DNA of 64,000 bases from Vicinamibacterales bacterium (GTDB lineage: Bacteria > Acidobacteriota > Vicinamibacteria > Vicinamibacterales > JAMQPK01), in contig CAVZIS010000006.1 of the NCBI GenBank assembly GCA_963775345.1, forward strand, positions 344,786 through 408,785, in the 5' to 3' direction. This document shows, piece by piece, positions 7,605 to 59,529 of this stretch. The translations under genes and the position numbers were made by a program. The notes under the pieces were generated by a model. The model was not told the DNA's origin. It was given only the letters and a program-made list of their open reading frames with translations, and ran no database searches. Position 1 is the first letter of the stretch. Each line of letters opens with the position of its first letter.

Positions 7605-7638
7605 AAAAAAAGGGGCAGGGAAGCTTGCTCCCCGCCCC
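7605..7638 (-). terminator. Rho-independent-type terminator for the minus-strand TBDR
   Basis: GC-rich hairpin GGGGCAGGGAAGCTTGCTCCCCGCCCC. On the minus strand it is followed by a run of 7 T (complement of A 7605-7611). Confidence 0.6.
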
Positions 7639-7693
7639 TTCGTGGATCTTCGTGCTCTTCGTGGACCTTCGTGTCCTTCGTGGATCTTCGTGT
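7638..7693. repeat. CTTCGTGGA-type 9-nt tandem repeat (about 6 units)
   Basis: cttcgtggat cttcgtgct cttcgtggac cttcgtgtc cttcgtggat cttcgtgtt lies between the TBDR stop (7694-7696) and its terminator hairpin. The same family recurs at 62408-62442. Confidence 0.85.
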
Positions 7694-19739: not shown

Positions 19740-19790
19740 GGCAGGGCTGAAGCCCTGCGCTACTGCGTTGTGCTGAAGCCCTGCGCTACC
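19740..19790. repeat. REP-like palindromic element, two units
   Basis: GGCAGGGCTGAAGCCCTGCGCTAC followed by a truncated unit GCTGAAGCCCTGCGCTACC. The same family, in both orientations, occurs at 51931-52085. Confidence 0.8.
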
Positions 19791-29119: not shown

Positions 29120-29144
29120 CAGTCCAACTCGAGATGGAGGATTT

Positions 29145-30300: not shown

Positions 30301-30348
30301 CCGATCTCGGAGTGCACTGAAGCGATCGGCCCCCTGGCAGAGTAGGGA

Positions 30349-30879
30349 ATGATTCGAAGGACGTTTCTGGGGTATGGGCTCATGCTCCTCGGTCGGAGCC
30401 GGCGGGTGTGGGCCCAGGCCGCCAGCGAGTCGGTGCGCTACAGCCCGCTGGCCTCGTCAGTCCGAATTCCACTCAGTGACTTGACTGCTCCACTGAGCCC
30501 TGTACCGTTCACGGCCGAAGCCGTTCTCCCGCCCGCGGCGTCTGTGCCCGGTCAGCGTGTGCGGTTGAGCGGGATGCTCTTCCGCAAGTCGACCGGCGAT
30601 GACACCGCGGAGCGGTTCACCGCCCTCTGCACGATCTGCCCTCATGAATCCTGCCTGGTCAAGTTCGTTGATGACCCGACAATGGCGTCTGAGCTGAGCG
30701 AGGGCGCCACCTCGAGTCCGGTCTTTTCCTGTGGGTGCCATCACAGCGCCTTCCATGGCGTGGACGGGAACAAGATCAACGGTCCGACGCACCGCGGCTT
30801 GTACCGCTTTCGAGTGACCGATGTCAGTGAAGGAGCCGTCGTGATCGGCGAAGTGGAAGAGGCTTTGCTCCTCGCATGA
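30349..30879 (+). CDS. Tat-exported Rieske [2Fe-2S]-type protein (copy A, intact)
   Basis: Twin-arginine leader MIRRTFLGYGLMLLG...VWAQA. Rieske box I C97-P-H-E-S-C102 and box II C128-G-C-H-H-S-A-F. 176 aa. Confidence 0.8.
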   Translation: MIRRTFLGYGLMLLGRSRRVWAQAASESVRYSPLASSVRIPLSDLTAPLSPVPFTAEAVLPPAASVPGQRVRLSGMLFRKSTGDDTAERFTALCTICPHESCLVKFVDDPTMASELSEGATSSPVFSCGCHHSAFHGVDGNKINGPTHRGLYRFRVTDVSEGAVVIGEVEEALLLA

Positions 30880-31990
30880 TAGTCAGGATAGCGGTACTCG
30901 TTCTCTCCACGCTGATCATTCCGGCTTCTGTCTCGCACTCGGTCTTCGATTGGCCGGGGCGGGGCGTGCTGCCCAGCAGCGAGCGAACGCACCCGCACAC
31001 GTTTCAAATCAATCGCGCCTGGCTGAAATTACCTGGGAAATGGAAGCTGGGAGACGCCTCCAGCGTCGCAGTCGATGCACGGGATCATGTCTGGGTGCTT
31101 CATCGCCCGCGAACCCTTCCCACCGACCAGATCGCGAGCACCGCGCCGCCCGTGCTGGAGTTCGATGCGGCCGATAACTTCATTCAAGGCTGGGGCGGAC
31201 CGGGGAATGGATACCAGTGGCCGGAGAGGGAGCACGGCCTCTATGTGGACTACAGGAACCACGGGCTGGTGGATCGGAGCCAACTAATTGCCCGCGACAG
31301 CAAGCTTCCTGGACTCAAGCCCGTCGCAGATGACCAGCTCGTCAAGTTCACCACAACTGGCAAATTTGTGATGCAGGTCGGCCGGAGTAATGCGAGCGGT
31401 GGTAACAGCGATACACGCAATCTACACAGGACCCGCAGACGTATCTGTGTATCGGAAGACGAACGAGGTGTTCGTGGCAGATGGGTACGGCAACCACCGC
31501 GTGATTGTTTTCGATGCAGAGACCGGCGTATTCAAACGGGCATGGGGCGCCTTTGGCAACAAACCGATAGATGACGACCACTGTCCTGCGTAAATCGCTC
31601 CTCCAACCACAAAAGATGGGAGCTCTGGTCCTCAACAGTTCGCCATTGTCCACGCGGTTCGCGTGTCGAATGATGGGTTGGTCTACGTCGCCGATCGAGA
31701 AGAGAACAGACGGGTCCAAGTGTTCAGCATCGAGTGGTAAGTTCATCGATCAGGTCTTTGTGGGCCGCCAGCCAGAGACCGGAGGGGCGTCCGTCGTCGC
31801 CTTCTCGTCGGCCCCGCAGCAGCAGTTTCTCTACGTCGGAGGTGGTTCGCTTAGATAACAGTTCTCGATCACAAGACACTCGCGCCCAGAAGCGTCCTTT
31901 GGCGGCAAAGGAGTCTTGTGTGGATCCACCACATGGCGGTCGACACGAAAGGTAACGTTTACGTAGCAGCGCTTAGTCAAGGCATCAAAG
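30876..31990 (+). pseudogene. PAL-like NHL-repeat propeller (copy A; frameshifts plus in-frame stop)
   Basis: Homologous to the intact copy at 46015, and its start overlaps the Rieske stop (ATGA). There is a scrambling +6 nt indel cluster near 31255-31300, an extra g near 31428 and a nonsense codon (cac tgt cct gcg TAA, about 31590) where copy B reads HCPAAPAPP. Confidence 0.8.
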
Positions 31991-35071: not shown

Positions 35072-35109
35072 TTGAAGGAGCATACTGAGGACGAATCATT
35101 TCGTTGAGA

Positions 35110-35350
35110 AGCTGAACATCCTGTACAGCCGCTCAGATACCATGTCGATTGTTGGTGTGACGACCAACAAGGTCATCAGGACAATCGAGGTTGTCAAGCA
35201 ACGGAAGGTATGGCCACGCCCAAAGTCGCGCTATCTGATGCCGTTCTCGACGAAGGAAGATGGTGGTCTGACAGTGGTTGACACGAACCGCGACGACGTC
35301 GTGAAGAAGTGCGGAGGCATGGAGCTTCGCCCCCACGAGGGCGATACTTC
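35110..35350 (+). pseudogene. Truncated relic of the YVTN propeller (type II)
   Basis: MSIVGVTTNKVIRTIEVVKQ...EDGGLTVVDTNRDDVVKKCGGMELRPHEGDTS aligns with residues of about 40-112 of copy D (MSVVDVATNTIIKTVEVGKQPHG...GDGGLTVVDTSRDEVVKKYGGMGLRPQEGDIT). The signal peptide and the C-terminal two-thirds are absent. Confidence 0.7.
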
Positions 35351-35443
35351 CGAGGGGCACGCAGCCCACTTCGGCTCGCTGATATGCGTTAGAGTCCCGC
35401 GCATAGCAAGGGAACCAATGCCAGACTCAAGAGGGGCAAGTTT

Positions 35444-38400
35444 ATGCGGTCCTTTGCCACAAGAAACAACCTTCGAGTTCGGGGTTGGTGGGTGCGCTCG
35501 GGCTGCTCTGTGCGACGCTGATGCGGTCGCGCAGGCGGCGCCCAAGGCGCGCCGCAGGAGGCGCTGCCCGCAGACGATCGAATTCAATCGGGACATCCGG
35601 CCGATCCTCTCGGACAAGTGCTTCCAGTGCCACGGGCCGGGGACGCAGCATGGCGACCCTGCGGTTCGACCTGGAAGACGGGGCCAAGCACGCGCTGCGC
35701 GGCGGACGGTTTGCCATCGTGCCGGGCGACCCGGACAAGAGTCAGATGATCCAGCGCATCACCGCGACCAATCCGGCCGTGCGGATGCCGCGGAGTCAGG
35801 AGGGCAGGCGCGCCGGGGCAGCCGCTCACCGAGCGGGAAATCGCGCTGCTGCGGCGATGGATCGAGCAAGGCGCCACCTGGCAGAAACATTGGTCGTTCA
35901 TTCCGCCGACGCGCCCGGCGCTGCCCACGGTGAAAGATGCGAAGTGGGTGCGGAATCCGATCGACGCCTTCGTGCTGCAGCGGCTGGAGCGCGAAGGCCT
36001 GAGGCCCTCGCCGGAAGCGGACCGGGCGACGCTGCTGCGGCGGGTCACGCTCGATTTGACGGGGCTGCCGCCGACGCCCGCCGAACTCGATGCGTTCCTG
36101 GCGGACAAATCGCCGAACGCGTACGAGAAGGTCGTGGATCGCTTGCTGCGGTCGCCGCGGTACGGGGAGCGCATGGCGTTCCCGTGGCTGGACGCGGCCC
36201 GATACGCCGACAGCAACGGCTACCAGATCGACGGCGCAGCGATTCATGTGGCGGTGGCGCGATTGGGTGATCGAGGCGTTCAATCGCAACATGCCGTACG
36301 ACCAGTTCACGGTCGAGCAGCTGGCGGGCGACCTGTTGCCGAACGCGACGCTGGATCAGCGGATCGCGACCGGGTTCAATCGCAATCACCGCGGCAATGC
36401 CGAGGGCGGCATCATTGCGGAAGAGTATGCGGTGGAATACGTCGTCGATCGCGTCGACACGACCGCGACCGTGTTCCTGGGCCTGACGCTGGGTGTGCGC
36501 GGTGCCACAACCACAAGTACGACCCGGTCACGCAGAAAGAGTTTTATCAGCTCTTTGCGTACTTCAATAACGTGCCCGAGCACGGGAGGGCCCGCCGAAT
36601 CGGCAACTCGCCGCCGTTTATCGCCGCGCCGACGCCCGAGCAACAGGCGCAGTTGAAGCAGCTCGATGATCAGCTGGCGGCGGCCAACGACGCATTTGCC
36701 AAGCTGCAGCCGGACTTGGCGCAGGGCGCAGCGGGAATGGGAACGGTCGCTGGACGGTCACGCCGATGTCGTGGGCCCCGGCTCGCGGGCTGGTCGCGCA
36801 CTATCCGCTCGACGGCGACCTGAAGCGCTCCGATTTCCGTGCCTCCGCACCCGAGACCGAGACTCGCCCGCTTCCTGCAACGCAAGCACTAGCCGGCAAC
36901 GTCGGCGACCGCGACGGCGCACCGAAGCGCCCACCGCTCGCAGGCCAGAACGAAGTGCGCTTTGTGCCCGGTCCGCTCGGCCAGGCGGCGAGCTTCGATG
37001 GCAAGGGCTTCATTCAAGGCGGCGACATCGTTGGGTTTGGCAGCCATATCGACGAGCCGCACCGTGGCTTACGACGACCCGTACACGATGGCCGCGTGGA
37101 TCTATCCCACGGCGGCGACTGGCGCGATTGTCACCAAGGTCGAGGATGATGCGGCCAAGGTCGACGAGCCAGACCCCATCGGACACGGGCTGAACCTGAA
37201 AGATGGAAGGTTCATTACAACTACGTGGCCGACAGTTGATGAAGGGATCCGCCTCAGACCGAGAAGACGGTCAGTCTGAACCAGTGGCATCACGTCACGC
37301 TGACCTACGACGGCTCGCGCTGGGCGAGCGGTTTCAAGGTCTACGTGGACGGTGAACAGTGGAAGTGGGGAAAGATTCTCCTGGATGACATGAACAACCC
37401 CGCTCCGCAGGCGCGAGGCGGGAGCCTCTGCGGATCGGCGCCGGCGGCGGGCCGGAGAACCGGTTCCAGGGCAGGATCGACGAGGTGCGGATCTACAACC
37501 GGGCGCTGTCACGCGGCGGAGGCCGCGGATGCTGGCCGATCTCACACCGGTGACCGAGATCGCGGCGCTGGCTGAGAACCAGCGGAGCTCCGGCCCAGGC
37601 CGACAAGATTCGCGATTACTTCCTCGAACACGCGGCGCCGGCGAACATCCGCAGACGCCTGGACGCAGTTGATGAGGCGCCAGGAACGACGGGATGAGTT
37701 CTATGACGGCCTCCCACGGTCATGGTGATGCAGGAGATGCCGACGCCGCGCGAGTCGCACGTGCTGATCCGTGGGCGTACGACAAGCCGGGCGAAAAGGT
37801 CACGCCCGGCGCTGCCGGCGGTGTTGGCGTCGTCGCCCACGGCGTATCCGCCGAATCGGCTGGGGCTGGCCCGGTGGCTGGTCGATCCGTCCAATCCGCT
37901 GATGGCGCGCGTGACGGTGAACCGGTTCTGGCAGATGTACTTCGGGGTCGGGATCGTGAAGACCGCCGAGGATTTCGGGTCGCAGGGCGAGGCGCCTTCG
38001 CATCCGGAGCTGCTGGATTGGCTCGCGACCGAATTTATTCGGACCGGCTGGAATGTGAAAGCCCTTCAGAAGACGATCGTGATGAGTGCGACGTACCGGC
38101 AGGCGTCGAGCATACCGCCGGACATGCTGGCGAAGGATCCCGAGAACCGGCTGCTCGCGCGCGGGCCGAACGTGCGGCTCTCGGCCGAAATCGATCCGCG
38201 ACCAGGCGTTGGCCTCGCGGGGCTGTTGGTGGACAAAGTCGGAGGTCCGTCGGTCAAGCCCTACCAGCCGGAAGGGCTCTGGAATGAGGTGGGCGGCGGG
38301 TCGACGTTACGTGCAGGACCATGGAGACAGCCTGTATCGCCGCAGCATGTATCTCTTCTGGAAGCGCACCGTTCCGCCGCCGACGATGGCGAACTTCGAC

Positions 38401-43639: not shown

Positions 43640-44234
43640 CGAGCGCCAGAGTTTTCCAGACCGAGTTTCGTATACGCTCGGATATGCTCGCGGCAACACT
43701 GGCGGTGAGCCGGCTCCAGTCAACAACTTCCAGATGCTGGCAGAGAGGAATCTGGATCTGAACTAGGGCCGAAACGATGCCGATCGCCGTCATATGTTGA
43801 GCGTAAACGGCCGGTTCGAAGTGCCAAGATACCGGCTTCAACATCAGCGGGGTGTTTCGCGCGATGACGGGTCAGCCGTTCACCATCCACGACACCAACT
43901 TCGATGTGAATCGGAACGGGATTCTCTTCGACCCGCTCCCGGCCGGCACTTATAGTGGGACGGGGAAGGGGCGATGACGGTGGAGAACGAGGGGGGACGC
44001 AATGGTGCGACGGGACCTGGTTATCGCCAGTTTGATCTGCGCGCCAGCTACCGCATGCGGCTCGGGTCGGTGAGAACGCTGGATCTTTTCGCCGAGATAT
44101 TCAACGTGACCGACGAGCCGAACTTTGCCAATCCGACCGGCGATCGTCGCTCGCCGGAGTTCTTGAATCCCACGGCTCTGTTAGGCGGCGGGGTTCCGCG
44201 GCAAGGGCAGTTTGGTGTGCGATTGGGTTTCTAA
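43640..44234 (+). pseudogene. 3' relic (last about 200 codons) of a type I cassette TBDR
   Basis: RVSYTLGYARGNTGGEPAPVNNFQMLAERNLDLN, then TAG where the 26114 gene has TAT (aac tat ggc). Frameshifted pieces follow, ending ...TLDLFAEIFNVTDEPNFANPTGDRRSPEFL...VPRQGQFGVRLGF*. There is no 5' part of the gene. Confidence 0.8.
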
Positions 44235-44280
44235 TGCGGTGAGTAGAATAGAGCATGGGACTTTAAAGGATGGAGGACGT

Positions 44281-45438
44281 ATGAGACTGAGACAGTTCAC
44301 GATTGTGCTCATGCTCGTTGTGCTGGCGACGTTCACGTTCTGACGGTCCGTGCCCGAGCCATCGACCCCTATCTGCTGGTGATGGGCAACAAACTAGCCC
44401 CGAACAAGGCGACCCACCAGGAGAAGCTCTACATCTCGAACGAGCGGTCCAACACGTTGACGGTCGTGGATGTCGCGACCAACAAAGTCATCAACACGAT
44501 TGATAGGTGCGAGGGAAGCACTCCGCATGGCCTTGCTGCCCCACCATCAGGAGAGCTTCTGTACGCTGGGAGCGAGGGAGATGGCTCGGTGAGGGTCATC
44601 GACACCATCACCGACAAGGTCATCAAGACGTATCCTTTCTTCGGCTATGAGCCCAACGAGTTCGACATCTCGGAAGACGGCGGTATCTCGTCGTCCCCTC
44701 GTACATGGGCTACTACCAGATATTCGATACCCAGAAGGAAGAGATCGTTGAATACGTTCACACCAAGGGGGTGCCGCACAACACGATCGTCGCAGAGGGC
44801 AACGCGTATCTGTTTCCGACATTCACAAACGAAGGGCATTTGAAGCGGCAAGCAGGGTTGCCGACCACGCAGCCGCGTGAGATCACCATCGTGTCATTGA
44901 AAACCCTCAAAGTCGTCGGGGCCATTCCGATTCCAGCTGCGTCGCGGCCGCCCACCATCAGTCCCGACGGCAAGCGGCTCTACGTGCAAACGGGAGGTCC
45001 GACCGTGTACGGGAACCTGATGGGGTTCCTCGTCATCGACATTCCGTCGAGGAAGGTGATCTCGCAGGCCGAGCACATGCTGACCCCCGAGGAAAAAGCA
45101 GGGCCAGGACGGTCGCACGGGATAACGGTCGCGGCTGGCGGCCGAGAAGTCTGGTCGGCGGATGTGAACCACAAGGCGACGTTCGTGTTCGACGTCACCG
45201 TGCTTCCACCCAAGCAAATCGCGAGAATTCCGATGGATGGGCAGCCTTACTGGGCCACCATCTCACTGGACGGCAATACCGTGTACGTCGCGGCTTCTCC
45301 GGATCATTCGTCATCGCGTACGATGCCGCGACGAAAAAGCAGAATGCACGGTTTGATCTTCCCAAAATGGGACCGAAGCGGATGCTTGCCGTGAACGTGC
45401 CGCGCAAAGCGTCGACGACGACCACGACGTCGCGATGA
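44281..45438 (+). pseudogene. YVTN/YncE-like beta-propeller (copy B, type I), at least 3 frameshifts
   Basis: Near-identical to copy A, with 2 aa differences over the roughly 200 residues I compared by eye. There is a 1-nt deletion in the signal peptide (about 44335, giving a premature TGA), a 1-nt deletion at about 44684 (gacggCggtat versus gacggAcggtat in A) and a frameshift at about 45305. Confidence 0.85.
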
Positions 45439-45485
45439 CCGATCTCGGAGTGCACTGAAGCGATCGGCCCCTGGCAGAGTAGGGA

Positions 45486-46018
45486 ATGATTCGAAGGACG
45501 TTTCTGGGGTATGGGCTCATGCTCCTCGGTCGGAGCCGGCGGGTGTGGGCCCAGGCTCGCCAGCGAGTCGGTGCGCTACAGCCCGCTGGCCTCGTCGGTC
45601 CGGATTCCACTCAGTGACTTGACTGCTCCACTGGAGCCCTGTACCGTTCACGGCCGAAGCCGTCTTGCCGCCCGCGGCGCTGTGCCCGGTCAGCGTGTGC
45701 GGTTGAGCGGGATGCTCTTCCGCAAGTCGACCGGCGATGACAGCCGCGGAGCGGTTCAGCGCCCTCTGCACGATCTGCCCTCATGAATCCTGCCTGGTCA
45801 AGTTCGTTGATGACCCGACAACGGCGTCTGAGCTGAGCGAGGGCGCCACCTCGGGTCCGGTCTTTTCCTGTGGGTGCCATCGCAGCGCCTTCCATGGCGT
45901 GGACGGGACCAAGATCAACGGTCCGACGCACCGCGGCTTGTACCGCTTTCGAGTGACCGATGTCAGTGAAGGAGCCGTCGTGATCGGCGAAGTGGAAGAG
46001 GCTTTGCTCCTCGCATGA
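45486..46018 (+). pseudogene. Tat-Rieske protein (copy B), frameshifted
   Basis: It starts identically to copy A (MIRRTFLGYGLMLLGRSRRVWAQ) and retains CPHESC...CGCHRSAF, but is read in at least 3 frames (breaks at about 45555, about 45640 and about 45740). Confidence 0.8.
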
Positions 46019-47139
46019 TAGTCAGGATAGCGGTACTCGTTCTCTCCACGCTAATCATTCCGGCGTCTGTCTCGCACCCGGTCTTCGAGTTGGCCGGGGC
46101 GTGGCGTGCTGCCCAGCAGCGAGCGGACGCACCGCCAACGTTTCAAGTCGATCGCGCCTGGCTGAAATTACCCGGGAAATGGAAGCTGGGAGACGCCTCC
46201 AGCGTCGCAGTCGATGCACGGGATCATGTCTGGGTGCTTCACCGCCCACGAACCCTTCCCCCCGACCAGATCGCGAGCGCCGCGCCGCCCGTGCTGGAGT
46301 TCGATGCGGCCGGTAACTTCATTCAAGGCTGGGGTGGACCGGGGAATGGATACCAGTGGCCGGAGAGGGAGCACGGCCTCTATGTGGACTACAGGGACCA
46401 CGTGTGGATCGGAGGCAACAATTGCCCCGGCAGCAAGCTTCCTGGACTCAAGCCCGTCGCAGATGACCAGCTCGTCAAGTTCACCACAACTGGCAAATTT
46501 GTGATGCAGGTCGGCCGGAGTAATGCGAGCGGTGGTAACAGCGATACACGCAATCTACACAGACCCGCGGACGTATCTGTGTATCGGAAGACGAACGAGG
46601 TGTTCGTGGCAGATGGGTACGGCAACCACCGCGTGATTGTTTTCGATGCAGAGACCGGCGTATTCAAACGGGCCTGGGGCGCGTTTGGCAACAAACCGAT
46701 AGATGACGACCACTGTCCCGCGGCCCCCGCTCCTCCAATCACCAAAGATGGGAGCCCTGGTCCTCAACAGTTCGCTATTGTCCACGCGGTTCGCGTGTCG
46801 AATGATGGGCTGGTCTACGTCGCCGATCGAGAGAACAGACGGGTCCAGGTGTTCAGCATCGAGGGCAAGTTCATCGATCAGGTCTTCGTGGGCCGCCAGC
46901 CAGAGACCGGAGGGGCGTCCGTCGTCGCCTTCTCGTCGGACCCGCAGCAGCAGTTTCTCTACGTCGGAGGCGGTTCGCTGATAACAGTTCTCGATCGCAA
47001 GACACTCGCGCCCAGAAGCGCCTTTGGCGGCAAAGGAGTCTTGGTTGGAATCCACCACATGGCGGTCGACACCAAAGGCAACGTTTTCGTTGCGGCGCTC
47101 GGCCAAGGCATCCAAAAACTTGTTCCTGACGGCCGTTGA
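46015..47139 (+). CDS. PAL-like (peptidyl-alpha-hydroxyglycine lyase-like) NHL-repeat beta-propeller, secreted (copy B, intact)
   Basis: 374 aa with an N-terminal hydrophobic anchor/signal. NHL-type blades: SSVAVDARDHVWVLHR, HGLYVDYRDHVWIGG, PADVSVYRKTNEVFVADGYGNHRVIVFDAETG, HAVRVSNDGLVYVADRENRRVQVFS, HHMAVDTKGNVFVAA. The start overlaps the Rieske-B stop. Confidence 0.75.
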   Translation: MIVRIAVLVLSTLIIPASVSHPVFELAGAWRAAQQRADAPPTFQVDRAWLKLPGKWKLGDASSVAVDARDHVWVLHRPRTLPPDQIASAAPPVLEFDAAGNFIQGWGGPGNGYQWPEREHGLYVDYRDHVWIGGNNCPGSKLPGLKPVADDQLVKFTTTGKFVMQVGRSNASGGNSDTRNLHRPADVSVYRKTNEVFVADGYGNHRVIVFDAETGVFKRAWGAFGNKPIDDDHCPAAPAPPITKDGSPGPQQFAIVHAVRVSNDGLVYVADRENRRVQVFSIEGKFIDQVFVGRQPETGGASVVAFSSDPQQQFLYVGGGSLITVLDRKTLAPRSAFGGKGVLVGIHHMAVDTKGNVFVAALGQGIQKLVPDGR

Positions 47140-47297
47140 TGTAGATCCTCACCATCTCACGATATGAACGTCATTGACGCTTGAGAGGCCGCATGCTACA
47201 AGTGGCCGCTCCATAACAATTAGACAGTCTATCGGCGTCCGCCGTCGGTGGGGCACTTGAACACCATGGCGCCCACAGATTTCGCAAGGAGGTCCCA

Positions 47298-50226
47298 ATG
47301 TCCCGATCCGCATGGTTACCGGCGGCGCTCGGCGTGGTCCTGGCAACGGCGATTGTGGGCGCGCAAGGTGGCGGATCCGCCCTTCAAGGCCGCGTGACCG
47401 ACGAGCAGCAGGCCGTCCTTCCCGGTGTCACCATCACCGTCACCCATCAGGAGAGCGGAACGTTTCGCGAAACGGTCTCGGGTCAGGACGGTGCGTACTT
47501 CGTGCCGGGCCTTGTTCCCGGGCGCTATCGTGTCGCGGCCGATCTCGCGGGATTCAAGAAATTCCTGCGCGAAGACGTGAATCTGCTTCTGGGAAACACG
47601 CAGACGCTCGATCTTCGGCTCGAGGTCGGCGGCGTGACCGAGACGGTCACGGTGACCGAGGAGGCGCCGGCCGTCGACCTGACCTCGGCGCGCGTCGGCG
47701 GAAACGTGGCATCGCGTGAGCTGCTCGATCTGCCATCTCCCACCCGCAACTTCATTTCGTTCGTGGCCATGGTGCCGGGCGTGCAGCTGAATCCGAGCGC
47801 TGAAGGATCCGATTCGATCAGCGTCAACGGTCAGAGCAGCAATCAGGTCACCTTCGTGCTGGACGGCGGCAACAACACCGACGACAACTCTGCCTCGCCA
47901 TCGGGTGCGCAGGCGCGAACGCCGCTCGAGACAGTCGAAGAATTCCAGGTCCAGACCAATCAGTTCGACGTCGAGTTCGGGCGAACGACCGGCGGCGTCG
48001 TCAATGCCATCACCAAGCGGGGGACCAACGCGTTCAGAGGCTCGGCCTTCGGGTACCTGACGAACTCGGCGATGACAGCGCCGACAATCCTGGCCGAGCT
48101 GGCGGGCGAAGGCGAATCGGATACCGACAAGCATCAGTATGGCGTCACCTTTGGCGGTCCCATCATCCGCGACAAGCTGCATTTCTTCGGGAGCTTCGAG
48201 CGGTATGTCGTCGGCACGGGTCTCACCAATGTGTTTCCGACCAGACCGGAGCTCAACTGGAGCGCGAAGGAGGGGTTGAACGGCAGAAATTATATGGTTC
48301 GCGTCGACCATCAGATCAACGCGAACAACACATATACGGCGCGATATCTGACCGAACGCCAGCCCAATCGCGACCTGTTGACCGGCGAGCGCGCGACGCT
48401 CAGCACTGGGAACTACGAGCTGGACACCGACCAGACTGCAAGCGTGGCATATAACCGCGTGATCGGCACGAGGGCGCTGAATACGGTCCGGGCGTCAATC
48501 GAGACCGAAGACATCCAGCGCGGGGCCGAGCCAGGCACTTTTCTTGAAACGAACCGGAAAGATCTGGAGGCTCCCGTCCTCCGGTTCCTGAGCTTTGACG
48601 AGCAGGGGCACACCAACGGCCAGCATCGCAACGCCCAGGCGCCAGGCATTGATGACACGTTCAGTTTGTTCGTGCCGGGCAAAGCGGGCGATCACGATCT
48701 GAAATTCGGATTCCAGTATTTGTACGCCAAGAACGAGCTGTCCGAGCAAGGCAGCATGAACGGCGTGTTCTCGTTCCCCGGCGATCGCCCGTTCAATGCC
48801 GCTGATCCTTCGACCTACCCCGAACGTCTGTCGATTCGCGTGCCGGTTCCCGCCGGCGTGACGTCGTTCACCCATTCGTTCGGGTATTACGCTCAGGACA
48901 AGTGGCGGATCACACCGAAGCTGACGCTGAACTTTGGACTGCGCTACGACGTCGACATCTTTCCGTTCCTTCAGCCGCTGAATCCTCTTCTCGAATCCGG
49001 CGAATATCCGGTAGACATGAACAATTTCCAGCCGCGCGCCGGCTTTGCCTACAACATCGATGGACGATCGGTGATTCGCGGCGGCGTCGGCCGCTATTAC
49101 GAGAAATTCTTCATCGGTCAGGGCTCGCCGCTTCAGGAAACGGGCGTGTTATGGCAGATCCCTGATCGTCAACTTCCCCGTGAGTCAGCCCGACCCCGGT
49201 CCGAGCAACGGACGGCTTCCGACCGATCCGATGCTCGTGAATGGCCCCGTCGTGAATCGCGCACTGCTCAATCAGCTCTATCCCGCGGACGTTCTGACGC
49301 GGAACACGGGGACCGTGCAGATGGATTCGCCCGATCGGCAGATGCCGAGCTCGACGCAGTTCTCGACCGGCTACGAGCGCCAGCTCGGAGCGACGATGTC
49401 CTTCGGGCGTCGACTACATCCACAACGAAGGCCGTAACTGGATCGGTTACGACTTGAATCCCGCTCTGCGGGTCAATACCACCCGAACGGGAGCGGTGAA
49501 CCGCACCGATCTGTTGGGGCTTGCAAACACGCTCGGGATTTCTCCTTTCGCGAACTCGGTCAATCTTCGGTTCGACTACACTGGCAAAACCAGGTACGAT
49601 GGCCTCAACCTTCAGTTGGAGCGGCGGTTCGCGGGGTTCTGGAGCGCCCGGGCCGGTTACACGCTCGGCTACGCCCGCGGCAACAACAGCGGCGCCGCAT
49701 TGGCCAATAACAATTTTCAGCTGCTGGCCGAGAAGAATCTCGACCTGAATGAAGGGCCGCTGGATACCGATCGGCGCCACAATCTTATTCTGAACACCCG
49801 CGTGGAAGTGCCGCAGCTGCAAGGGCTTGACCGTCAGCGCGCTGTTCAGGTACATGAGCGGCAGACCGTTCAGCATCATCGACACGAACGTCGACCCGGA
49901 CAGGAACGGAATCCTGTTCGATCCGCTGCCGGCCGGCGAATACAGCGGCGTCGGTGAGACAGCGATCACGGTGAACAACAAGGGAGGTCGTAACGGCGCC
50001 TATGGACCCGATTACGCGCAACTGGATGCCCGGGTGGGGTATCGTCTTCGCATGCCCGGCTCGCGAACGCTCGACGTGTTCCTCGAGTGCTTCAATGTGA
50101 CCAACAGATCGAATTTCACGAATCCGTCGGGAGACAGAAGGCTGCCGAACCTTCCTCGTCAACAACGGGTTGGTCGCGGGCGGGTTCCCGCGACAACTGC
50201 AGGTCGGGACCCGGCTCGGCTTTTAG
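47298..50226 (+). pseudogene. TonB-dependent receptor (cassette type II, copy 5), 3' third frameshifted
   Basis: AGGAGG lies upstream of ATG 47298. The gene is intact for about 615 codons (QGRVTDEQQAVLPGVTITVTHQESGTFRETV...). Frame changes then occur at about 49150, about 49410, about 49830 and about 50150. The true end FPRQLQVGTRLGF* is at 50226. Confidence 0.85.
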
Positions 50227-50235
50227 GAGGAATCT

Positions 50236-51346
50236 ATGAGATTGCGATATGTCGATGCTTGTGCTCGGGCTAGTAGTGACTCGCGACCTTCGCGTCGACC
50301 GCCCAGAATGCCGCGGTTCACGAGAAGCTCTATGTCTCGCTCCAAGGCTTCGAGAAGGAGAGCCTGGCGGTCGTCGACACGGCGACCAACAAGGTCATCA
50401 AGACCCTGTCGGCCGGGGCGCACCCGCACGGCATGGCCTCGCCCCAGTCCCAGTCAATCCTCTATGTCGCAAGTGAGACCGAAGGCACCATAACGACGGT
50501 CGACACCACCCGGGACCAGGTCATCAAGACGCTGGATGTCGGCTTTGGCGTGGAACCTCAGGAGGGCGATATCACCCCGGATGGCCGCTTCCTGTATTGG
50601 CCCTCGTACGCCGGCTACTACCAGGTCTTCGATACCCAGAAGGAAGAGATCATCGAATACATCCACACCCTGGGCATCGGGCATAACACCGTGATGTCGC
50701 CCGATGGGCGATTTGTCTATCTGCTTCCCATCGCCGGCGGCGCCGGGTCACTGGCGGCGGCCTTCGCTGGGTCTGCCGCGGACGCAGCCGAAGGAAGTGA
50801 CCGTCGTCGATGCGAAAACCCATAAGGCCGTGGGGACGATTCCTCTCGGCTCGGGACCAAGGCCCGGGACCATCAGCCCCGACGGCAAGCGGATCTACAT
50901 GAACGTGGACAACCTGCTGGGATTCCTCGTCATCGATACCGCCGCGCGAAAGGTGATCTCGAAGGCGACCTACACGCTGACGCCGGATGAACAGGCCGTG
51001 CAGAGCCGGTCCCACGGGATCGCGGTTGCGAATGATGGCAAGGAAGTGTGGTCGACTGACGTCGTCCACAGCCTGGTCTTCGCATTTGACGTCACGGTGA
51101 CTCCGCCGAAGCAGATCGCACGGTTCCCGGTGGGGCGGCAGCCGTATTGGATTGTCACCATCGAAGGACACCAAGACCGTTTACGTGGCCAATCCGAGCA
51201 GTGACGAGGTGATCATCTTTGATGTGGCCACCAAGAAGGAAAAGGCGCGCATCCAATTTCCACCGAAGTCGCATCCCACGCGCATGCTGATGGTGGCCGC
51301 TCCGCGCACAGCGCGACCACAACTCTCGATGACGACAGTACACTGA
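50236..51346 (+). pseudogene. YVTN/YncE-like beta-propeller (copy C, type II), multiple frameshifts
   Basis: RBS taGGAGG, then ATG 50236. Ordered fragments: HEKLYVS..ESLAVVDTATNKVIKTL; ILYVASETEGTITTVDTTRDQVIKTL...YAGYYQVFDTQKEEIIEYIH; GHWRRPSLGLPRTQPKEVTVVDAKTHKAVGTIP...; TVYVANPSSDEVIIFDVATKKEKARI. Confidence 0.8.
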
Positions 51347-51372
51347 GGACTGGCGGCTCCGAGGACTGGACA

Positions 51373-51914
51373 ATGCTTCGGCGGGTGTTCGTTCGTCTAC
51401 GGGCTCATGCTCGTCGGCTTTGGCCGACGGGTATGGGCCCAGTTAGTCGAACCGGTCAGTCAAATACTTTCCGCTGACACATCCGATTCGCATCCCGCTC
51501 GCCGAGGTGAAGACGCCGTGGCAACCCGTGCCGTTTACTGCCGAAGCGATGGCGCCTGCCACCTCGACCACTGCAAGACGGCGAGTGCTCATCAGCGGGG
51601 TGTTGTTTCGACGATCAGAGTCGGACGACAACGCAACAAAAAACCTGAGCGCGCTTTGCCTCACCTGTCCGCATGAGCAATGTAAGGTCGATCTCGTCAC
51701 CGATCCCGCCCAACTGGCTCAGATGATCGGCCGGCCGGCGACGCATCCGCTCTTCGAATGCGCCTGTCATCAGAGCGTCTTCGATGCGTTGCAGGATGGT
51801 GAGCGGATATCGGGCGAAACGCCGCGCGGCTTGTACCGCTTTCGAATCACCAATGTCAGCGACAGTGCGGTCGAGATCGGTGAAATCGAAGAAATAGCGC
51901 TATTTGAGGTGTGA
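51373..51914 (+). pseudogene. Tat-Rieske protein (copy C); the Rieske domain is intact but the leader is separated by two frameshifts
   Basis: The 135-aa ORF 51507-51914 keeps CPHEQC...CACHQSVF. The twin-arginine start MLRRVF (ATG 51373) and the h-region YGLMLVGFGRRVWAQ lie in two other frames. Confidence 0.65.
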
Positions 51915-51930
51915 CCGTATACTGATGACA

Positions 51931-52085
51931 GTAGCGGACTTGGGCAGGCCTGAAAGGCCTGCGCTACCGATGTCGGCTTCTAATCGGGCAGGCCTAAAAG
52001 GCCTGCGCTACCGAGGTCCTTCACCGGTAGCGCAGGGCTTCAGCCCTGCCGCCGATCTGCGGTAGCGCGGGGCTTCAGCCCTGCC
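51931..52085. repeat. Cluster of four REP-like palindromic units (two forward, two inverted)
   Basis: GGGCAGGCCTGAAAGGCCTGCGCTACC (51942-51968), GGGCAGGCCTAAAAGGCCTGCGCTACC (51986-52012), GGTAGCGCAGGGCTTCAGCCCTGCC (52026-52050) and GGTAGCGCGGGGCTTCAGCCCTGCC (52061-52085). Confidence 0.85.
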
Positions 52086-52128
52086 ATCAGGCCGAACGCG
52101 ATAAGGAGCAATCCGATGCGGCGAGTAC

Positions 52129-53478
52129 TTGTTCCCGGCGGTGTTCTTGTTCATCATCGCTCTCGCGATAACCCTGCCTTCCGGTGTTGCCGTATCCGCC
52201 GCAGTGCCCGAGACGCCCACTTTCAACAAGGACGTTCTGTCGATTCTTCAAAAGAACTGTCAGGAGTGTCATCGGCCCGGCGCGATTGCCCCGATGTCCT
52301 TCATGACCTACCAGGAGACCCGCCCATACGCCCGGGCGATCTCCAAGGCGGTCGTCAGCAGGACGATGCCGCCGTGGTTTGCAGATCCGACGGTTGGTCA
52401 TTTTGAGAACACCAAGCTGCTGAGCGATGAACAGATCGCTACGTTGGTCGCGTGGGCCGACAAGGGCGCGGTTGAGGGCGATGCGAAGGACAAGCCTGCG
52501 CCTGTCGATTTTGCCGACGGATGGACGATTGGCAAGCCCGACATCATCGTGCAGATGCCGAAGACCATCGAGCTTCCGGCGACCGGCATCATCGATCAGT
52601 CAAATGTGCTCGTCTACGCGCATTTCGAAAAGGACATGTGGGTGAAAGCCGCCCAGGTGCTGCCCGGCAACGCGAAGGTCGTGCATCACATGAAGGCGTG
52701 GATCCGTCCGCCCGGTTCCGCGTGGATGGCGGATGCTCCCGAAGGGGTTCTCTACAATCCACCGCGTGGCGCGGGAGGACCGGCGCCGCAACCGGTCGCA
52801 CTGTCGGCGACGGGATATAAACCCGCTCAGGACATTCTTGCGAAGTACAACCCCGGTGTTGCGGGCCAGGAGTTCACAACGGGAAACGCCGCCAAATTCA
52901 TCGCCGCCGGCTCCGACATCGTCTTCGAGGCGCACTATACGACGACGGGGAAACCCGAAACAGATAGATCGTCGGTCGGCATCGTGCTGGCCGATGGACC
53001 ACCGACGCAACGGCATCTCACGACGACGGCGATCAGCGAGAGGAATTTCGAGATTCCGGCGGGCGATCCGCACTATGAAATCAGAGGCGAAGTCACCGTC
53101 GAGGAGCCCGCGAAGCTCGTCTGGATCCAGCCGCACATGCACTATCGCGGCACGTACTACGAGTTGAAGGTCGTGTACCCGGATGGTAAGGAAACGATGA
53201 TCGTGCGCGTTCCGAACTACCGGTTCGATTGGCAATTGGGTTACGAGCTGGCCGAGCCGGTGGATTTGCCGAAGGGCTCGAAGCTGATGACCGTTTCGTA
53301 CTACGACAATTCATCAGCCAACAGATTCAATCCCGATCCCGCCAGGAACGTGCGGTACGGTGCCCAGAGCTGGGATGAGATGAATGTCAGCTTCATCGGT
53401 ATTTTGATCGACGCGAAAGGAGACCCCGGGAGAGCGTTCCGCCGACGAGGGGCGCCGGTTCGCCAGGAGGTGGAGTAG
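52129..53478 (+). CDS. Cytochrome-c-domain / PHM-like (copper type II ascorbate-dependent monooxygenase-like) fusion protein, secreted
   Basis: Heme-c motif C44-Q-E-C-H48 in an N-domain (ILQKNCQECHRPG..MPPWFADP). PHM-type ligand pattern H186-H187, H269, H336-x-H338, M418. The ORF opens with TTG 52129. A better-placed ATG 52116 (AAGGAG at 52103-52108) is in another frame, which implies either a 1-nt indel at 52119-52129 or the TTG start. Confidence 0.75.
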   Translation: MFPAVFLFIIALAITLPSGVAVSAAVPETPTFNKDVLSILQKNCQECHRPGAIAPMSFMTYQETRPYARAISKAVVSRTMPPWFADPTVGHFENTKLLSDEQIATLVAWADKGAVEGDAKDKPAPVDFADGWTIGKPDIIVQMPKTIELPATGIIDQSNVLVYAHFEKDMWVKAAQVLPGNAKVVHHMKAWIRPPGSAWMADAPEGVLYNPPRGAGGPAPQPVALSATGYKPAQDILAKYNPGVAGQEFTTGNAAKFIAAGSDIVFEAHYTTTGKPETDRSSVGIVLADGPPTQRHLTTTAISERNFEIPAGDPHYEIRGEVTVEEPAKLVWIQPHMHYRGTYYELKVVYPDGKETMIVRVPNYRFDWQLGYELAEPVDLPKGSKLMTVSYYDNSSANRFNPDPARNVRYGAQSWDEMNVSFIGILIDAKGDPGRAFRRRGAPVRQEVE

Positions 53479-53676: not shown

Positions 53677-54633
53677 GTGAACCGTATGCTAGGATGCCGC
53701 CCACTTATGAGAACCATGAGAGTTGCGGTGCTTGCGGCGCTGTTCATGACCACGCTTACCGCGCGCCAGGCGATTCCGCAGGCGACGGGTCCGAACGTCG
53801 CACGCGATTTGCGTGGGGCGGTCGATATCCACGTTCATTCCGACCCCGACAAGGTTCCGCGCTCCCTGGACGGGCTCGAAGCGGCCCGGCTGGCCAAAGA
53901 GAAAGGCATGCGCGCGATCGTACTGAAGAGCCACTACGATCCGACAGCGGGTCTGGCTCTGCTGGCCCGCAAGCAGGCGCCCGGCATCGAGGTGTTCGGC
54001 GGAATCGATCTGAATCTTCCCGTCGGCGGCATGAACGTTCATGCGGTCGAGAACATGGTCCAGACCAACGGCCACTGGGGGCGGGTCGTGTGGATGTCTA
54101 CGTTCGATTCCGAGAATCAGGCTCGCGCGGGCAAGACGCCGCGTCCGTTCGTGCGCGTCTCGGCAAACGGCGAGCTGCTGCCGGAGACGAAGGCAGTCAT
54201 CGCGGCGATCGCCAAGCACAACCTGGTCATGGCGAGCGGTCACGTCTCGGCTGCAGAGACGCTGATGATGTTCGAAGAAGCCCGCAAGCTCGGCGTCCGC
54301 GGCATGGTCGCCACTCACGGAATGTCCCCGCCGACCTCGCTCACGGTGGAACAAGCCAGGAAGGCGACAGCGCTCGGCGCATTCATCGAGTTCTGTGGCG
54401 GAACGCTCGAAACGCCCACCGGGCAAGCCAAGGTCGATCGCTTCGCGGATGACATCCGTCAGGTTGGCGTCGATCACGCGATTATCTCTTCGGATCTCGG
54501 TCAGGGAGGCAATCCGCTGCCTGCCGACGGGCTCGCGACATTCATCGACGCGCTGCGAAAGAAAGGCTTTACCGATCAGGAGCTCGATCGGATCGCGAAG
54601 CAGAACCCTGCCAGGCTTCTCGGTCTTCCATAG
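53677..54633 (+). CDS. Secreted TIM-barrel metal-dependent hydrolase-like protein (amidohydrolase superfamily / DUF6282-like)
   Basis: Signal peptide MRVAVLAALFMTTLTA. Then DIHVHSDPD (HxH metal motif), later SGHVS and ATHG His motifs, and SSDLGQ (Asp). The family name is from memory. Confidence 0.5.
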   Translation: MNRMLGCRPLMRTMRVAVLAALFMTTLTARQAIPQATGPNVARDLRGAVDIHVHSDPDKVPRSLDGLEAARLAKEKGMRAIVLKSHYDPTAGLALLARKQAPGIEVFGGIDLNLPVGGMNVHAVENMVQTNGHWGRVVWMSTFDSENQARAGKTPRPFVRVSANGELLPETKAVIAAIAKHNLVMASGHVSAAETLMMFEEARKLGVRGMVATHGMSPPTSLTVEQARKATALGAFIEFCGGTLETPTGQAKVDRFADDIRQVGVDHAIISSDLGQGGNPLPADGLATFIDALRKKGFTDQELDRIAKQNPARLLGLP

Positions 54634-54672: not shown

Positions 54673-54686
54673 GAGGAGAGTTGCTG

Positions 54687-55915
54687 ATGAGGCGAAGGAT
54701 ATTCCTGCTTTGCGTTGTCGTCGCAGTGTCGGCTGGCATGAGCGCGGCGCAGCATGCTGTCGATCGCCTTGTCCTGTATGCAGCGCTCGGTTCAGATCTG
54801 GCGACCTATGATGTAGACCTCGCTCATGCGGCGCTGGCCAGGCGATCGAGCGTCACGCTGCCGTTTGCGGTCCAGTATGCGTGGCCGCATCCGTCGAAGA
54901 AATTCCTGTATGTCGCCTGGAGCAACGGCATGCAGGGCGATCGTCACGGCATCACGGTCTATCGAGTTGATGCCGCTGGAGCCCTCGCGCCCCATGGACC
55001 ATCGATCGAGATTCGCCATCGGCCCGTGCATCTGACTCTGGACGCCAACGCGACGCATGTGCTCGTCGCCTACAACAACCCGAGCGGCCTGAGCGTGCAC
55101 AGCCTCAACGCCGACGGCACGCTCGGCAGCGAAGTCAAACAACCCGGATCGATCGATGGCGGGATCTACGCGCATCAGATCCGCGTGCATCCATCGAACA
55201 AGATGGTCGTCATGGTCACGCGCGGGAACGGCCCGACGCCAGCCGCCCGGAGGATCCGGGCGCGCTCAAGATTTTCGGCTACAACGATGGAATTCTCGAA
55301 AGCCGTCAGTCCATCGCCCCCAACGGCGGATTCGGATATCAGCCCCGGCACGTCGACTTTCACCCGTCGCAGCCGTGGATGTATCTCAACCTCGAACGGC
55401 AGAATCAGCTGCAGGTTTATCGCACCGTCCGCGGGGAATCCGTAGAGCCCGCTGCGCTCTTTACAAGGGACACGCTCGACAATCAGGCTGCCAGCAAGCC
55501 CGCTCAAATGACCGGCGCCATTCACGTGCATCCAAACGGGCGGTTCGTCTATGTCAGCAATCGCGCCAGCGGCACGATCGACGTCGGGGCAAAGCCAATC
55601 TGGGAGGGCGGTGAAAACACCATCGGTGTCTACGCCGTGGATCAGAAAACGGGCGAGCCGACGAGAATCCAGAACATCGACAGCGGCGGGATGCATGCGC
55701 GAACGTTCGCGCTCGATGATGGCGGCCGCATTCTCGTTGCTGCGAATCAGAACGCCGTGACCAGGCGTGACGGTGCGACCGAAACCAGAGTGCCTGCGTC
55801 GCTCGCGGCGTTCCGTATCGCGGCGGACGGCAAGCTGTCGTTTGTGCGGAAGTACGATGTGGAAACGGGGCAGGGGCGGAGTCTCATGTGGGTCGGACTC
55901 CTGACGCTGAACTAG
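54687..55915 (+). CDS. Lactonase-family 7-bladed beta-propeller (6-phosphogluconolactonase-like), secreted; one frameshift
   Basis: GAGGAG, then ATG 54687 (MRRRIFLLCVVVAVSAGMSAAQ). The N-half (to about 55245) and the C-half (EDPGALKIFGYNDGILESRQSIAPNGGFGYQPRHVDFHPSQPWMYLNLER...HVHPNGRFVYVSNR) are in different frames. The break is near gccgcccgg at 55240-55250. Confidence 0.75.
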
Positions 55916-57533: not shown

Positions 57534-59529
57534 ATGTCGCGATATGCAACCTACTGGTCCTTGTTCATGGTTGCCGTCGGTCTCCTGATTTGCAATCCGC
57601 CGGCAGCGGGGCAGCACGGCGCGAAAAACGGCGAGTGGCGCGCATACGCCGGCGAGCCGGGCAGCACGAAATACTCACCGCTCGATCAAATCAGCAGAGA
57701 CAACGCGAAAAACCTCAGGGTCGCGTGGCGCTTCAAGGCGGACAACCTCGGTCCGCTGCCCGACTACAACATGCAGGCCGTTCCCCTCATGGTGGGTGGA
57801 GTTCTCTATTCGCAGGCCGGGTCACGCCGTGCTGTTGTTGCCCTGGATCCAGCGACGGGCGAGATGCTGTGGATGTGGCGGATGGACGAAGGCGAGCGGG
57901 GCCGCAACGCTCCGCGTCAGGGATCCGGACGCGGCCTTGCCTACTGGACAGACGGCAAGGGCGACGATCGCATCTACACGATCACGCCGGGCTACCACCT
58001 GGTTGCCCTGAGCGCGAAGACCGGTGTTCCCGTTTCATCGTTCGGCAGTAGCGGTGTCGTCGACCTGAAGACCGAGCTCGACCAGACGATCGATCCGATC
58101 ACCGGCGAGATCGGCCTCAACTCGCCGCCCGTCATCGCCAACAACGTGCTCGTCGTCGGCGCGGCGCATTTGTCGGGAGCGGCGCCGAAGACCAAAGAGC
58201 ACATCAAAGGCTACATACGCGGCTACGACGTGCGGACCGGTAAGCGTTTGTGGATCTTTCATACGATTCCGCAACCAGGAGAATTCGGCAACGACACGTG
58301 GCTGAACGACTCCTGGGCCTATACGGGGAACGCCGGTAACTGGGCTCCTATCACGATCGACGAGCAGCTCAACCGCGTGTATCTCACGATTGAGGACGGG
58401 ACCGGCGACTACTACGGGGGGCATCGACCGGGCAATAACCTCTTCACTGCCAGCATCGTCTGCGTCGATCTCAACACGGGCAAGCGCTACTGGCATTATC
58501 AGCTCGTCCACCATGACATCTGGGACTGGGACATCCCCGCCCCGGCGGTGCTGATGGACATCACCGTCGGCGGCAAACCCATCAAGGCCGTTGCCGTCAT
58601 CACCAAGCAGGCGTGGGTGTACACCTTCGATCGCGTGACAGGGGCGCCGGTGTGGCCAATCGAGGAACGGCCCGTGCCCGCAGGGCAAGGTGCCGAGCGA
58701 GTGGTACGCGCCGACACAGCCGCATCCCTCTAAGCCCGCGCCCTTCGACCGGCAGGGCATTACAGAGAACGACGTCGTTGACTGGACTCCTGAAATCAAG
58801 GCGGAGGCCCTGCGCGTGCTGAGCCTTCATAAGCATGGTCCCAGCCCGTTCGTACCGCCGGCGGCGGTCGGCGAAGACTTCAAATTCGGAAGCCTGCAGG
58901 TGCCCGGGAACAACGGCGGAGCAAACTGGGAAGGTGGCACATTCGATCCCGAGACCGGGATCCTCTACGTTTTCTCATCCACGCAGCCGAGCCGGCGTGC
59001 TCTCATCAACGATCCAAAAGCTTCGAACATGAACTTCATCGAGGGACGCGGCCGCAATCCTCATGGCGTCGGTGATATCCCGGCTGGCACACCGGTTCCT
59101 CCACCAACGGTTTTCGGCCTGCCGCTGATCAAGCCGCCATACGGGCGCATCACGGCGATCAACATGAATACCGGCGAACATGTCTGGCAAGTGCCGAACG
59201 GCGGTACACCCGACAACATCGCCAACCATGAAAAGCTGAAGGGCATCGAGATCCCACGGACCGGACGTCCGGGACGAACAGGGACGATGGTCACAAAGAC
59301 GCTGCTGTGGGCGGGAGAGCGAGGGCCCCTTGTGAACGTCAACGGCCAGGAGGGATCGTGGTTTCGTGCGTATGACAAAGCAACGGGCGCGATCGTGGCC
59401 GAGATTCTCGTGCCCGCGAACGTGAGCAACGTCCCGATGACCTACATGCACAACAACAAGCAATACATCATCGTGGCCGTGTCGGCGACCGGCCATCCGT
59501 CAGAGCTCGTGGCGTTGACGCTGCCGTAG
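57534..59529 (+). CDS. PQQ-dependent dehydrogenase (8-bladed quinoprotein), secreted; one frameshift
   Basis: GEWRAYAGEPGSTKYSPLDQI, LVALDPATGEMLW, DVRTGKRLW, YWHYQLVHHDIWDWD are typical quinoprotein motifs. The frame changes at about 58683 (..ERPVPAG|KVPSEWYAPTQPHPSKPAPFDRQG..), linking ORFs 57534-58733 and 58690-59529. Confidence 0.8.

Follow-up and report, generated by a model that had tools for sequence, protein, structure and literature searches.

A 64,000-nt stretch of DNA from a Vicinamibacterales bacterium (the window; all positions are counted from its first letter) carries a gene for a 449-amino-acid protein in which a cytochrome c-like domain precedes the two beta-sandwich domains of a PHM/DBH-type two-copper core. 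This gene is the subject of the present analysis, and its parts are as follows.

52129–53478, plus strand: open reading frame (ORF) of the cytochrome c/PHM-like protein, with a TTG start, 449 amino acids and stop codon included (from the ORF list).
52216–52482, plus strand: mono-heme cytochrome c-like domain of three helices, residues ~30–118 (weak Pfam Cytochrome_CBB3 and Haem_bd matches, relatives, structural model).
52258–52272, plus strand: heme c attachment motif C44-Q-E-C47-H48 (present in 284/284 aligned relatives).
52366–52377, plus strand: M80-P-P-W motif, candidate sixth (axial Met) heme ligand (proposed from conservation).
52531–53013, plus strand: first beta-sandwich domain, equivalent to the CuH-binding N-domain of PHM, with H186/H187 at 52684–52689 and H269 at 52933–52935 (hhalign, Foldseek, conservation).
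53014–53424, plus strand: second beta-sandwich domain, equivalent to the CuM-binding C-domain of PHM, with H336 at 53134–53136, H338 at 53140–53142 and M418 at 53380–53382 (Pfam, hhalign, conservation).

The preliminary description of this DNA had picked out six His and Met residues as the copper ligands of a PHM-like monooxygenase and a CxxCH motif as its heme attachment site. All of them (C44-Q-E-C47-H48, H186/H187, H269, H336/H338 and M418) lie at the residue numbers claimed, and the six pair one-for-one with the copper ligands of PHM. The sequence and numbering of the rat PHM catalytic core were checked against PDB entries 4e4z_A and 5wm0_A, and a profile–profile comparison of the family with rat PHM in hhalign gave a probability of 95.5% (E 1.5e-8) over 235 columns. 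In this alignment, H186, H187 and H269 correspond to the CuH ligands H107, H108 and H172, respectively, H336 and H338 to the CuM ligands H242 and H244, and M418 to the CuM ligand M314. The proposed spacings were also correct for both proteins, with gaps of 82, 67 and 80 residues here versus 64, 70 and 70 in PHM. E267 aligns to PHM Q170, a residue of the proposed electron pathway from CuH to CuM, and Q369 and E417 align to Q272 and E313, respectively.

An AlphaFold2 model computed on a diverse alignment had a mean predicted local distance difference test score (pLDDT) of 89.9 and a predicted template modeling score (pTM) of 0.86. When the model was compared with the PDB using Foldseek, the 31 best matches were PHM or human DBH without exception, at E values from 2.1e-13 to 1.7e-9. 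Alignments with E between 2.1e-13 and 5e-11 spanned both domains over ~318 columns, with TM scores of 0.58–0.68 normalized to PHM (0.64 for the best match). The strong fold matches were all animal PHM and DBH, with no solved structure of a bacterial relative among them. These data show that the gene product is a homolog of PHM and DBH with the PHM fold and exact ligand correspondence.

The ligand and heme-motif positions are nearly invariant in the family. In an alignment of 39 sequences reaching down to 31% identity, C44, C47, H48, M80-P-P, H186, H187, H269, H336, H338 and M418 are all invariant. The same columns are 99.6–100% conserved in 291 proteins aligned to the family HMM, again down to ~31% identity; the individual counts for the copper ligands are 284/285 each for H186 and H187, 290/290 for H269, 291/291 for H336, 290/291 for H338 and 285/285 for M418. 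The ligand and heme columns are likewise conserved in 108 gene copies taken from 83 genome loci. This combined pattern of His/Met ligands and heme motif is far beyond chance.

At the N terminus, the cytochrome c assignment made earlier (class I-like, Pfam PF13442/PF00034) rests on an invariant CxxCH motif, an invariant Met in the M80-P-P-W motif and relatives that score above the curated Pfam cut-off. C44, C47 and H48 are each present in 284/284 relatives, M80 and P81 in 285/285 and W83 in 284/285, and the only two cysteines in the window protein are those of the CxxCH motif. The AlphaFold model places helices at residues 32–43, 61–76 and 100–111 in this region. Cytochrome_CBB3 is matched at E < 0.01 by 29 of 39 relatives, and its curated cut-off of 27 bits is passed by P0121 (37.1 bits), P0122 (34.1 bits) and P0143 (29.5 bits). 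An hhalign comparison of the family with Pseudomonas cytochrome c551 gave 11%, which was too weak to place M80 at Met61. When the cytochrome domain was modeled alone, the best fold matches were mostly c-type cytochromes, with E values of 0.25 or worse. Covalent attachment of c-type heme requires export, and the N termini of the homologs, which are basic and then hydrophobic in the manner of a signal peptide, fit this requirement. The pLDDT remains high through the linker (residues 110–200) and the pTM of the full model is also high, which suggests that the interface between the heme domain and the CuH domain is fixed.

The 449-amino-acid ORF product has more than 4,400 homologs (90% clusters) that align with it from end to end. 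An exhaustive HMMER search found 18,988 representatives of 50% clusters at E ≤ 0.001, 3,857 of them at E ≤ 1e-30. Among the 150 best of these 50%-cluster representatives, 85 have the plain form to which the window protein belongs (signal peptide, cytochrome c and two copper domains), 63 carry an N-terminal one-Cys AhpC/TSA (redoxin) domain and 34 have a C-terminal extension of more than 100 amino acids. In the window protein, no redoxin domain was detected by Pfam, and the cytochrome c domain directly follows the signal peptide. Ten longer representatives were annotated with Pfam and combine the redoxin domain with alpha/beta-hydrolase, GDSL lipase, TPR, EF-hand, DUF3471 or MBOAT modules. A redoxin motif, G-T/S-x-C-P-L/I-x-x-x-Y, precedes the cytochrome in P0121, P0143, P0162, P0165, P0170, P0239, P0261 and P0267, and some redoxin-bearing relatives contain a second copy of the core. 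The distribution across genomes was taken from the best 80 loci of a scan with a closer alignment (A1). All 80 matches are from Acidobacteriota (Bryobacterales, Vicinamibacterales and Terriglobia), and several genomes hold multiple copies. Two to four tandem paralogs lie within ~13 kb in 18 of 83 loci (L046, L043, L045, L078, L082 and 13 others), with the ligands retained in all copies that were aligned. Paralogs in such numbers suggest that the substrates are varied.

We hypothesize, with a probability of roughly 60%, that the protein is a secreted periplasmic heme–copper monooxygenase of the PHM/DBH type that takes its electrons through the fused cytochrome c. Its metal and heme loading, its electron route, its monooxygenase chemistry and the class of its substrate are what we infer from the evidence gathered here. 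The protein would be exported, heme c attached in the periplasm and two coppers loaded. The heme would be held on C44 and C47, with H48 and probably M80 as axial ligands, and each sandwich domain would bind one mononuclear copper, CuH on H186/H187/H269 and CuM on H336/H338/M418. A periplasmic one-electron donor, either a soluble cytochrome or a PQQ (pyrroloquinoline quinone)- or flavoprotein-type dehydrogenase, would reduce the heme, which would then pass electrons singly to CuH in the role that ascorbate has in the animal enzymes. Electrons would continue from CuH to CuM, where O2 would be bound and activated and a C–H bond of the substrate hydroxylated. The fused architecture, with some support from genomic context, suggests that the heme is a built-in electron donor replacing ascorbate; the presence of the cytochrome c together with the periplasmic location argues for a protein donor rather than ascorbate. 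Reduction of a copper monooxygenase by a c-type cytochrome has a precedent in CjX183, a bacterial c-type cytochrome domain, and lytic polysaccharide monooxygenase (LPMO; PMC8981238).

The substrate side differs from that of PHM. In PHM, R240, N316 and Y318 hold the carboxylate of the peptidyl-glycine substrate (PMC12164859); in the hhalign alignment these residues correspond to Q334, V420 and F422, respectively. In the column of R240, the commonest residues among 291 relatives are Q, M, F, T, S and L, with Arg outside the top six. None of the ten cysteines of the PHM catalytic core (4e4z_A) is retained, and the PHM disulfides are absent. Judged by its sequence, the protein is a PHM-fold two-copper enzyme and not a peptide-amidating PHM, because both the carboxylate anchor and the ten cysteines are gone. 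With the anchor missing, the substrate would be something other than peptidyl-glycine, probably a small organic compound that is taken up into the periplasm and metabolized there. Five residues in the CuM-side domain (R340, W368, Y372, N394 and N401) are invariant and specific to this family, and they are candidates for a different substrate site.

Neighboring genes were clustered in 75 homolog loci, and no universal operon partner emerged. The commonest neighbors were a tandem paralog (16), TonB-type receptors (9), short-chain dehydrogenases/reductases (8), a 281-amino-acid secreted protein (8) and MacB-type permeases (7). Six of the fetched loci have PQQ/cytochrome c dehydrogenases in the vicinity, and five have GMC flavoproteins. 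The clearest arrangement is found in five Bryobacterales species (L013, L014, L016 and L017, at about 5000–9650, and L012), where genes for a VOC/glyoxalase protein, the cytochrome c/PHM-like protein, a Gluconate_2-dh3 small subunit and a GMC flavoprotein follow one another on one strand; in two of the five, the group is preceded by two PQQ/cytochrome c dehydrogenases. Three-subunit flavoprotein dehydrogenases of the Gluconate_2-dh3/GMC type usually have a cytochrome c subunit as their electron acceptor. In the five species, the heme–copper protein occupies the place expected of this subunit, a position consistent with electrons entering through the heme.

The window itself has a PQQ dehydrogenase gene at 57534–59526, 4 kb downstream of the gene under study, with lactonase-type propellers (54681–55912) in between. 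A frameshift divides the gene of this PQQ-dependent glucose/alcohol dehydrogenase into two ORFs. Directly after the gene, at 53677–54633, lies a gene for a DUF6282 protein (amidohydrolase-like, with weak similarity to Peptidase_M19); a DUF6282 gene also follows a 50%-identical homolog in a Terriglobia genome (L010, 7456–8259).

The preliminary description had named two outcomes that would speak against its proposal, a mismatch of the ligands with those of PHM and DBH and the lack of a significant match to the profiles of the PHM/DBH-type, non-coupled two-copper monooxygenases (PF01082 and PF03712), and neither was observed. The Cu2_monoox_C match to residues 309–423, at E 2.5e-4, counts in favor of the assignment. 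Several observations weigh against a heme–copper monooxygenase. The Cu2_monoox_C match has 21.0 bits, just below the curated cut-off of 23, and Cu2_monooxygen has no Pfam match in the window protein. Relatives match these profiles at E < 0.01 in 26/39 and 3/39 cases, respectively, and one relative, P0267, passes the curated Cu2_monooxygen (PF01082) cut-off (31.3 versus 30). An NCBIfam search with the protein returned nothing, and sequence searches of the PDB with the single protein and with a 30-sequence profile found no PHM or DBH; the relationship with PHM is seen only via sub-threshold Pfam matches, profile–profile comparison and structure. Cytochrome_CBB3 scores 17.2 bits in the window protein versus its Pfam cut-off of 27, and the cytochrome domain modeled in isolation (pLDDT 86.6) has no significant fold match in the PDB. 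The conserved start of the gene is frameshifted in the window, no operon partner is shared across the 75 loci, and the redoxin domain of 63/150 representatives could point to peroxide or thiol chemistry and not hydroxylation.

Scores below the curated Pfam thresholds and the lack of a conserved pathway context also speak for a relic, meaning a non-catalytic electron carrier or a copper-binding or trafficking protein that has kept the PHM fold. We consider this very improbable, since two distinct copper ligand sets and the heme motif are near-absolutely conserved across ~19,000 50% clusters and the substrate-side residues are invariant as well. Such conservation points to selection on a working two-copper, one-heme machine.

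A working machine with these cofactors might instead be an electron sink that draws on periplasmic dehydrogenases or cytochromes through its heme and reduces O2 or H2O2 at the coppers. Its role would then be protective, or that of an outlet resembling cytochrome c oxidase or a peroxidase. The one-Cys AhpC/TSA domain fused before the core in the 63 representatives is peroxiredoxin/GPx-like, and the position of the gene in the cytochrome-subunit slot of a flavoprotein dehydrogenase in the five Bryobacterales species is that of an acceptor. No conserved substrate-pathway genes surround the homologs, and the substrate anchor of PHM is absent. We nevertheless regard this alternative as unlikely. 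The full CuH and CuM ligand set, including the CuM Met, is kept at 99.6–100%, and in PHM this arrangement serves tightly coupled C–H hydroxylation (PMC12164859). The invariant R340, W368, Y372, N394 and N401 on the CuM side look like a binding site, and sets of two to four tandem paralogs are seen more often in enzymes that have diversified by substrate than in respiratory outlets.

The 5' end of the gene requires separate consideration, because the conserved start lies in a different frame from the rest of the gene:

52103–52108, plus strand: Shine-Dalgarno-like AAGGAG, 7 nt 5' of the ATG at 52116 (kept in the alignment with ortholog locus L001).
52116–52137, plus strand: conserved start segment, ATG onward, encoding MRRVLVP, in a frame that differs from the rest of the gene (homolog N termini, DNA alignment with L001 and L002).
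52129–52200, plus strand: hydrophobic signal-peptide region, residues 1–24, with a putative cleavage site at ...AVSA/AVPE (sequence, homolog N termini, low pLDDT).

The N termini of homologs read M[RQ]RVLVPAVF, and MRRVLVP is encoded in the window from the ATG at 52116. A DNA alignment with L001 and L002 shows one extra G in the window at ~52137/52138; at 52134–52141 the window reads CCCGGCGG, and the corresponding sequence at L001, an ortholog locus that is 88% identical and has an intact gene, is CCCGCGG. The extra G puts ATG 52116 out of frame with the 449-amino-acid ORF. In the preliminary description the gene had been given a start at 52116, which needs correction: this ATG is in the other frame, the length (53478 − 52116 + 1) is not divisible by 3, and the 449-amino-acid frame runs from the TTG at 52129. 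The mismatch indicates that the span of the biological gene had been combined with residue numbers from the TTG frame. The TTG is 20 nt from AAGGAG, and the signal peptide read from it lacks a basic n-region, which falls in the frameshifted piece.

Taken at face value, the shift of frame behind codon 7 deprives the gene of its proper start and of the basic segment of its signal peptide, and the copy in this genome could be dead: the extra G separates ATG 52116, with the ribosome-binding site before it, from the 449-amino-acid frame, and the alternative TTG has its AAGGAG 20 nt away and a signal peptide without a basic n-region. We think this improbable. No break interrupts the 449 codons that remain, which share 88% identity with those of an intact ortholog. 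Compared with L001, the adjacent 4.6 kb (47288–52138) has ~15 indels that disrupt reading frames, most of them one additional base, and these break a TonB-type receptor gene (47298–50273) and a beta-propeller gene (50433–51346) into three frames each; the L001 genes are whole. This looks like assembly error rather than decay of a single gene and, because so many further indels lie nearby while the L001 genes are whole, we interpret the frameshift at the start of the gene as an assembly error and not gene decay, with modest confidence.

Two features lie upstream of this region:

51447–51914, plus strand: Rieske-type [2Fe-2S] protein with CPHEQC...CACH (Pfam Rieske, motif scan).
51937–52085, no strand assigned: four GC-rich hairpin repeats resembling repetitive extragenic palindromic (REP) elements (sequence; a pattern search gave 3 matches in the window versus 0 expected).

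As described previously, the gene comes directly after the Rieske ORF, which ends at 51914, with the REP cluster between them; the spacer is 214 bp. The REP-like hairpin GGTAGCGCAGGGCTTCAGCCCTGCC occurs once more in the window, at 19740–19764 on the minus strand, 32 kb upstream of the four-copy cluster. The Rieske gene is the last member of one of three paralogous cassettes (26228–31989, 43662–47136 and 47298–51914), each ordered as a TonB-type outer-membrane receptor (CarboxypepD_reg plus OMP barrel), a YncE-like beta-propeller and a small bc1-type Rieske protein (CPHxxC...CxCH). In two cassettes, a gene for an NHL-repeat protein starts at the Rieske stop codon; in the third, the REP cluster and then the gene under study follow. 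The cassettes may be a periplasmic redox/uptake module. The Rieske gene was considered as a dedicated partner and rejected. By tblastn, a Rieske neighbor is found in only one of 83 homolog loci, that of the closest ortholog (L001); for this reason the Rieske gene is better taken as part of the cassette, probably with no dedicated tie to the gene under study, and the functional link hinted at in the preliminary description is not upheld. Elsewhere in the window, ORF 35750–36817, together with the overlapping ORF 35076–35930, encodes a PSCyt2/DUF1549-type protein with CxxCH motifs, from a Planctomycete-style cytochrome family.

A PAL-like fold occurs in the same region as the PHM-like gene: the NHL protein of 46015–47136 matches the PAL domain of PAM (3fvz, E 3.4e-12), with generic NHL/TRIM propellers ranking higher. 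Together with the fold and the ligands, which are those of PHM, this raises the alternative of a genuine bacterial PHM ortholog that amidates peptides together with the NHL-repeat (PAL-like) proteins of the window. Two NHL beta-propeller proteins are encoded there (30876–31989 and 46015–47136), in the two cassettes where the NHL gene holds the post-Rieske slot that the PHM-like gene holds in the third. Such an ortholog is hardly credible given that the R240/N316/Y318 anchor is Q334/V420/F422 here and that the six residues found most often at the first position in 291 relatives do not include Arg. The NHL protein is also closer to generic NHL/TRIM propellers than to PAL, and NHL genes lie near the homolog in only 3/83 loci, with weak matches.

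PHM, DBH and tyramine beta-monooxygenase (TBM) are textbook animal enzymes, and the family described here is an unstudied variant of this well-known kind. No paper on a bacterial cytochrome c–PHM fusion was found in full-text literature searches, the scope of which left out most subscription-journal papers. In databases, members are named "hypothetical protein" or "mono/diheme cytochrome c family protein," and annotation has thus mostly overlooked the copper enzyme; the domain combination is partly visible in the precomputed Pfam matches of a few members. For PHM, DBH and TBM, it is debated how electrons cross the ~11 Å between the coppers and whether ascorbate has a role beyond copper reduction (PMC12164859). 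If the proposed mechanism is true, a spectroscopically visible heme would be fixed beside CuH and ascorbate would not be needed, so that electron injection could be triggered and followed directly, in an enzyme that can probably be expressed in bacteria.

Acidobacteriota are a dominant and poorly understood soil phylum in which the family is huge and multi-copy, and it sits there among TonB-type receptors, lactonases and PQQ or flavin dehydrogenases. On these grounds, its members may be periplasmic oxygenases of an unrecognized class that take part in turning over soil organic matter. We would put at even odds the wider proposal that these proteins form a very large prokaryotic branch of PHM/DBH (~19,000 50% clusters) in which a fused cytochrome c has replaced ascorbate, with the enzyme wired to periplasmic PQQ/flavoprotein dehydrogenases and the family diversified through tandem paralogs, in soil Acidobacteriota and in other bacteria, into hydroxylases that act on many small organic compounds.

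One of the closest known systems is PHM, the catalytic core of PAM (PDB: 1PHM, 3MLL, 4E4Z). PHM and the window protein both have two beta-sandwich domains with the two copper ligand sets in the same order, and they have in common the local motifs VHHM, (V/A)HY, H-x-H and DEM; the interdomain residues Q170 and Q272 of PHM correspond to E and Q in the window protein. Identity in structural alignments is ~13–17%, and the loop from H187 to H269, which is poorly conserved, is 18 residues longer in the window protein. PHM works in the animal secretory pathway, whereas the window protein is bacterial and predicted to be periplasmic. Only the window protein has an N-terminal cytochrome c domain, and because of this domain it is presumably independent of ascorbate.

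DBH, TBM and MOXD1 (PDB: 4ZEL) have the same catalytic core (Foldseek match to DBH, E 2.5e-11). DBH carries an extra N-terminal DOMON domain before the core (PMC4846438, PMC12164859). An extra N-terminal domain is thus present in both proteins, but it is DOMON in DBH and a putative c-type cytochrome with covalent heme in the window protein, which is also without the dimerization domain. The redoxin–cytochrome c–PHM-like fusions (e.g., P0143, P0170 and P0267) have the same cytochrome c and two-copper core with all ligands kept; their extra N-terminal one-Cys AhpC/TSA domain and, in some cases, C-terminal hydrolase, TPR or other modules are absent from the window protein.

Fungal cellobiose dehydrogenase consists of a GMC flavoprotein plus a cytochrome. 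The GMC flavoprotein gene beside the heme–copper gene in the five Bryobacterales species is reminiscent of the route from cellobiose dehydrogenase to LPMO. LPMO has a single histidine-brace copper, whereas the window protein is of the two-copper PHM type, and in LPMO systems the cytochrome is on the dehydrogenase or a separate carrier, whereas in the window protein it is fused to the copper enzyme itself. What CjX183 and LPMO have in common with the arrangement proposed for the window protein is that a heme domain, and not ascorbate, supplies a copper monooxygenase with electrons one at a time (PMC8981238).

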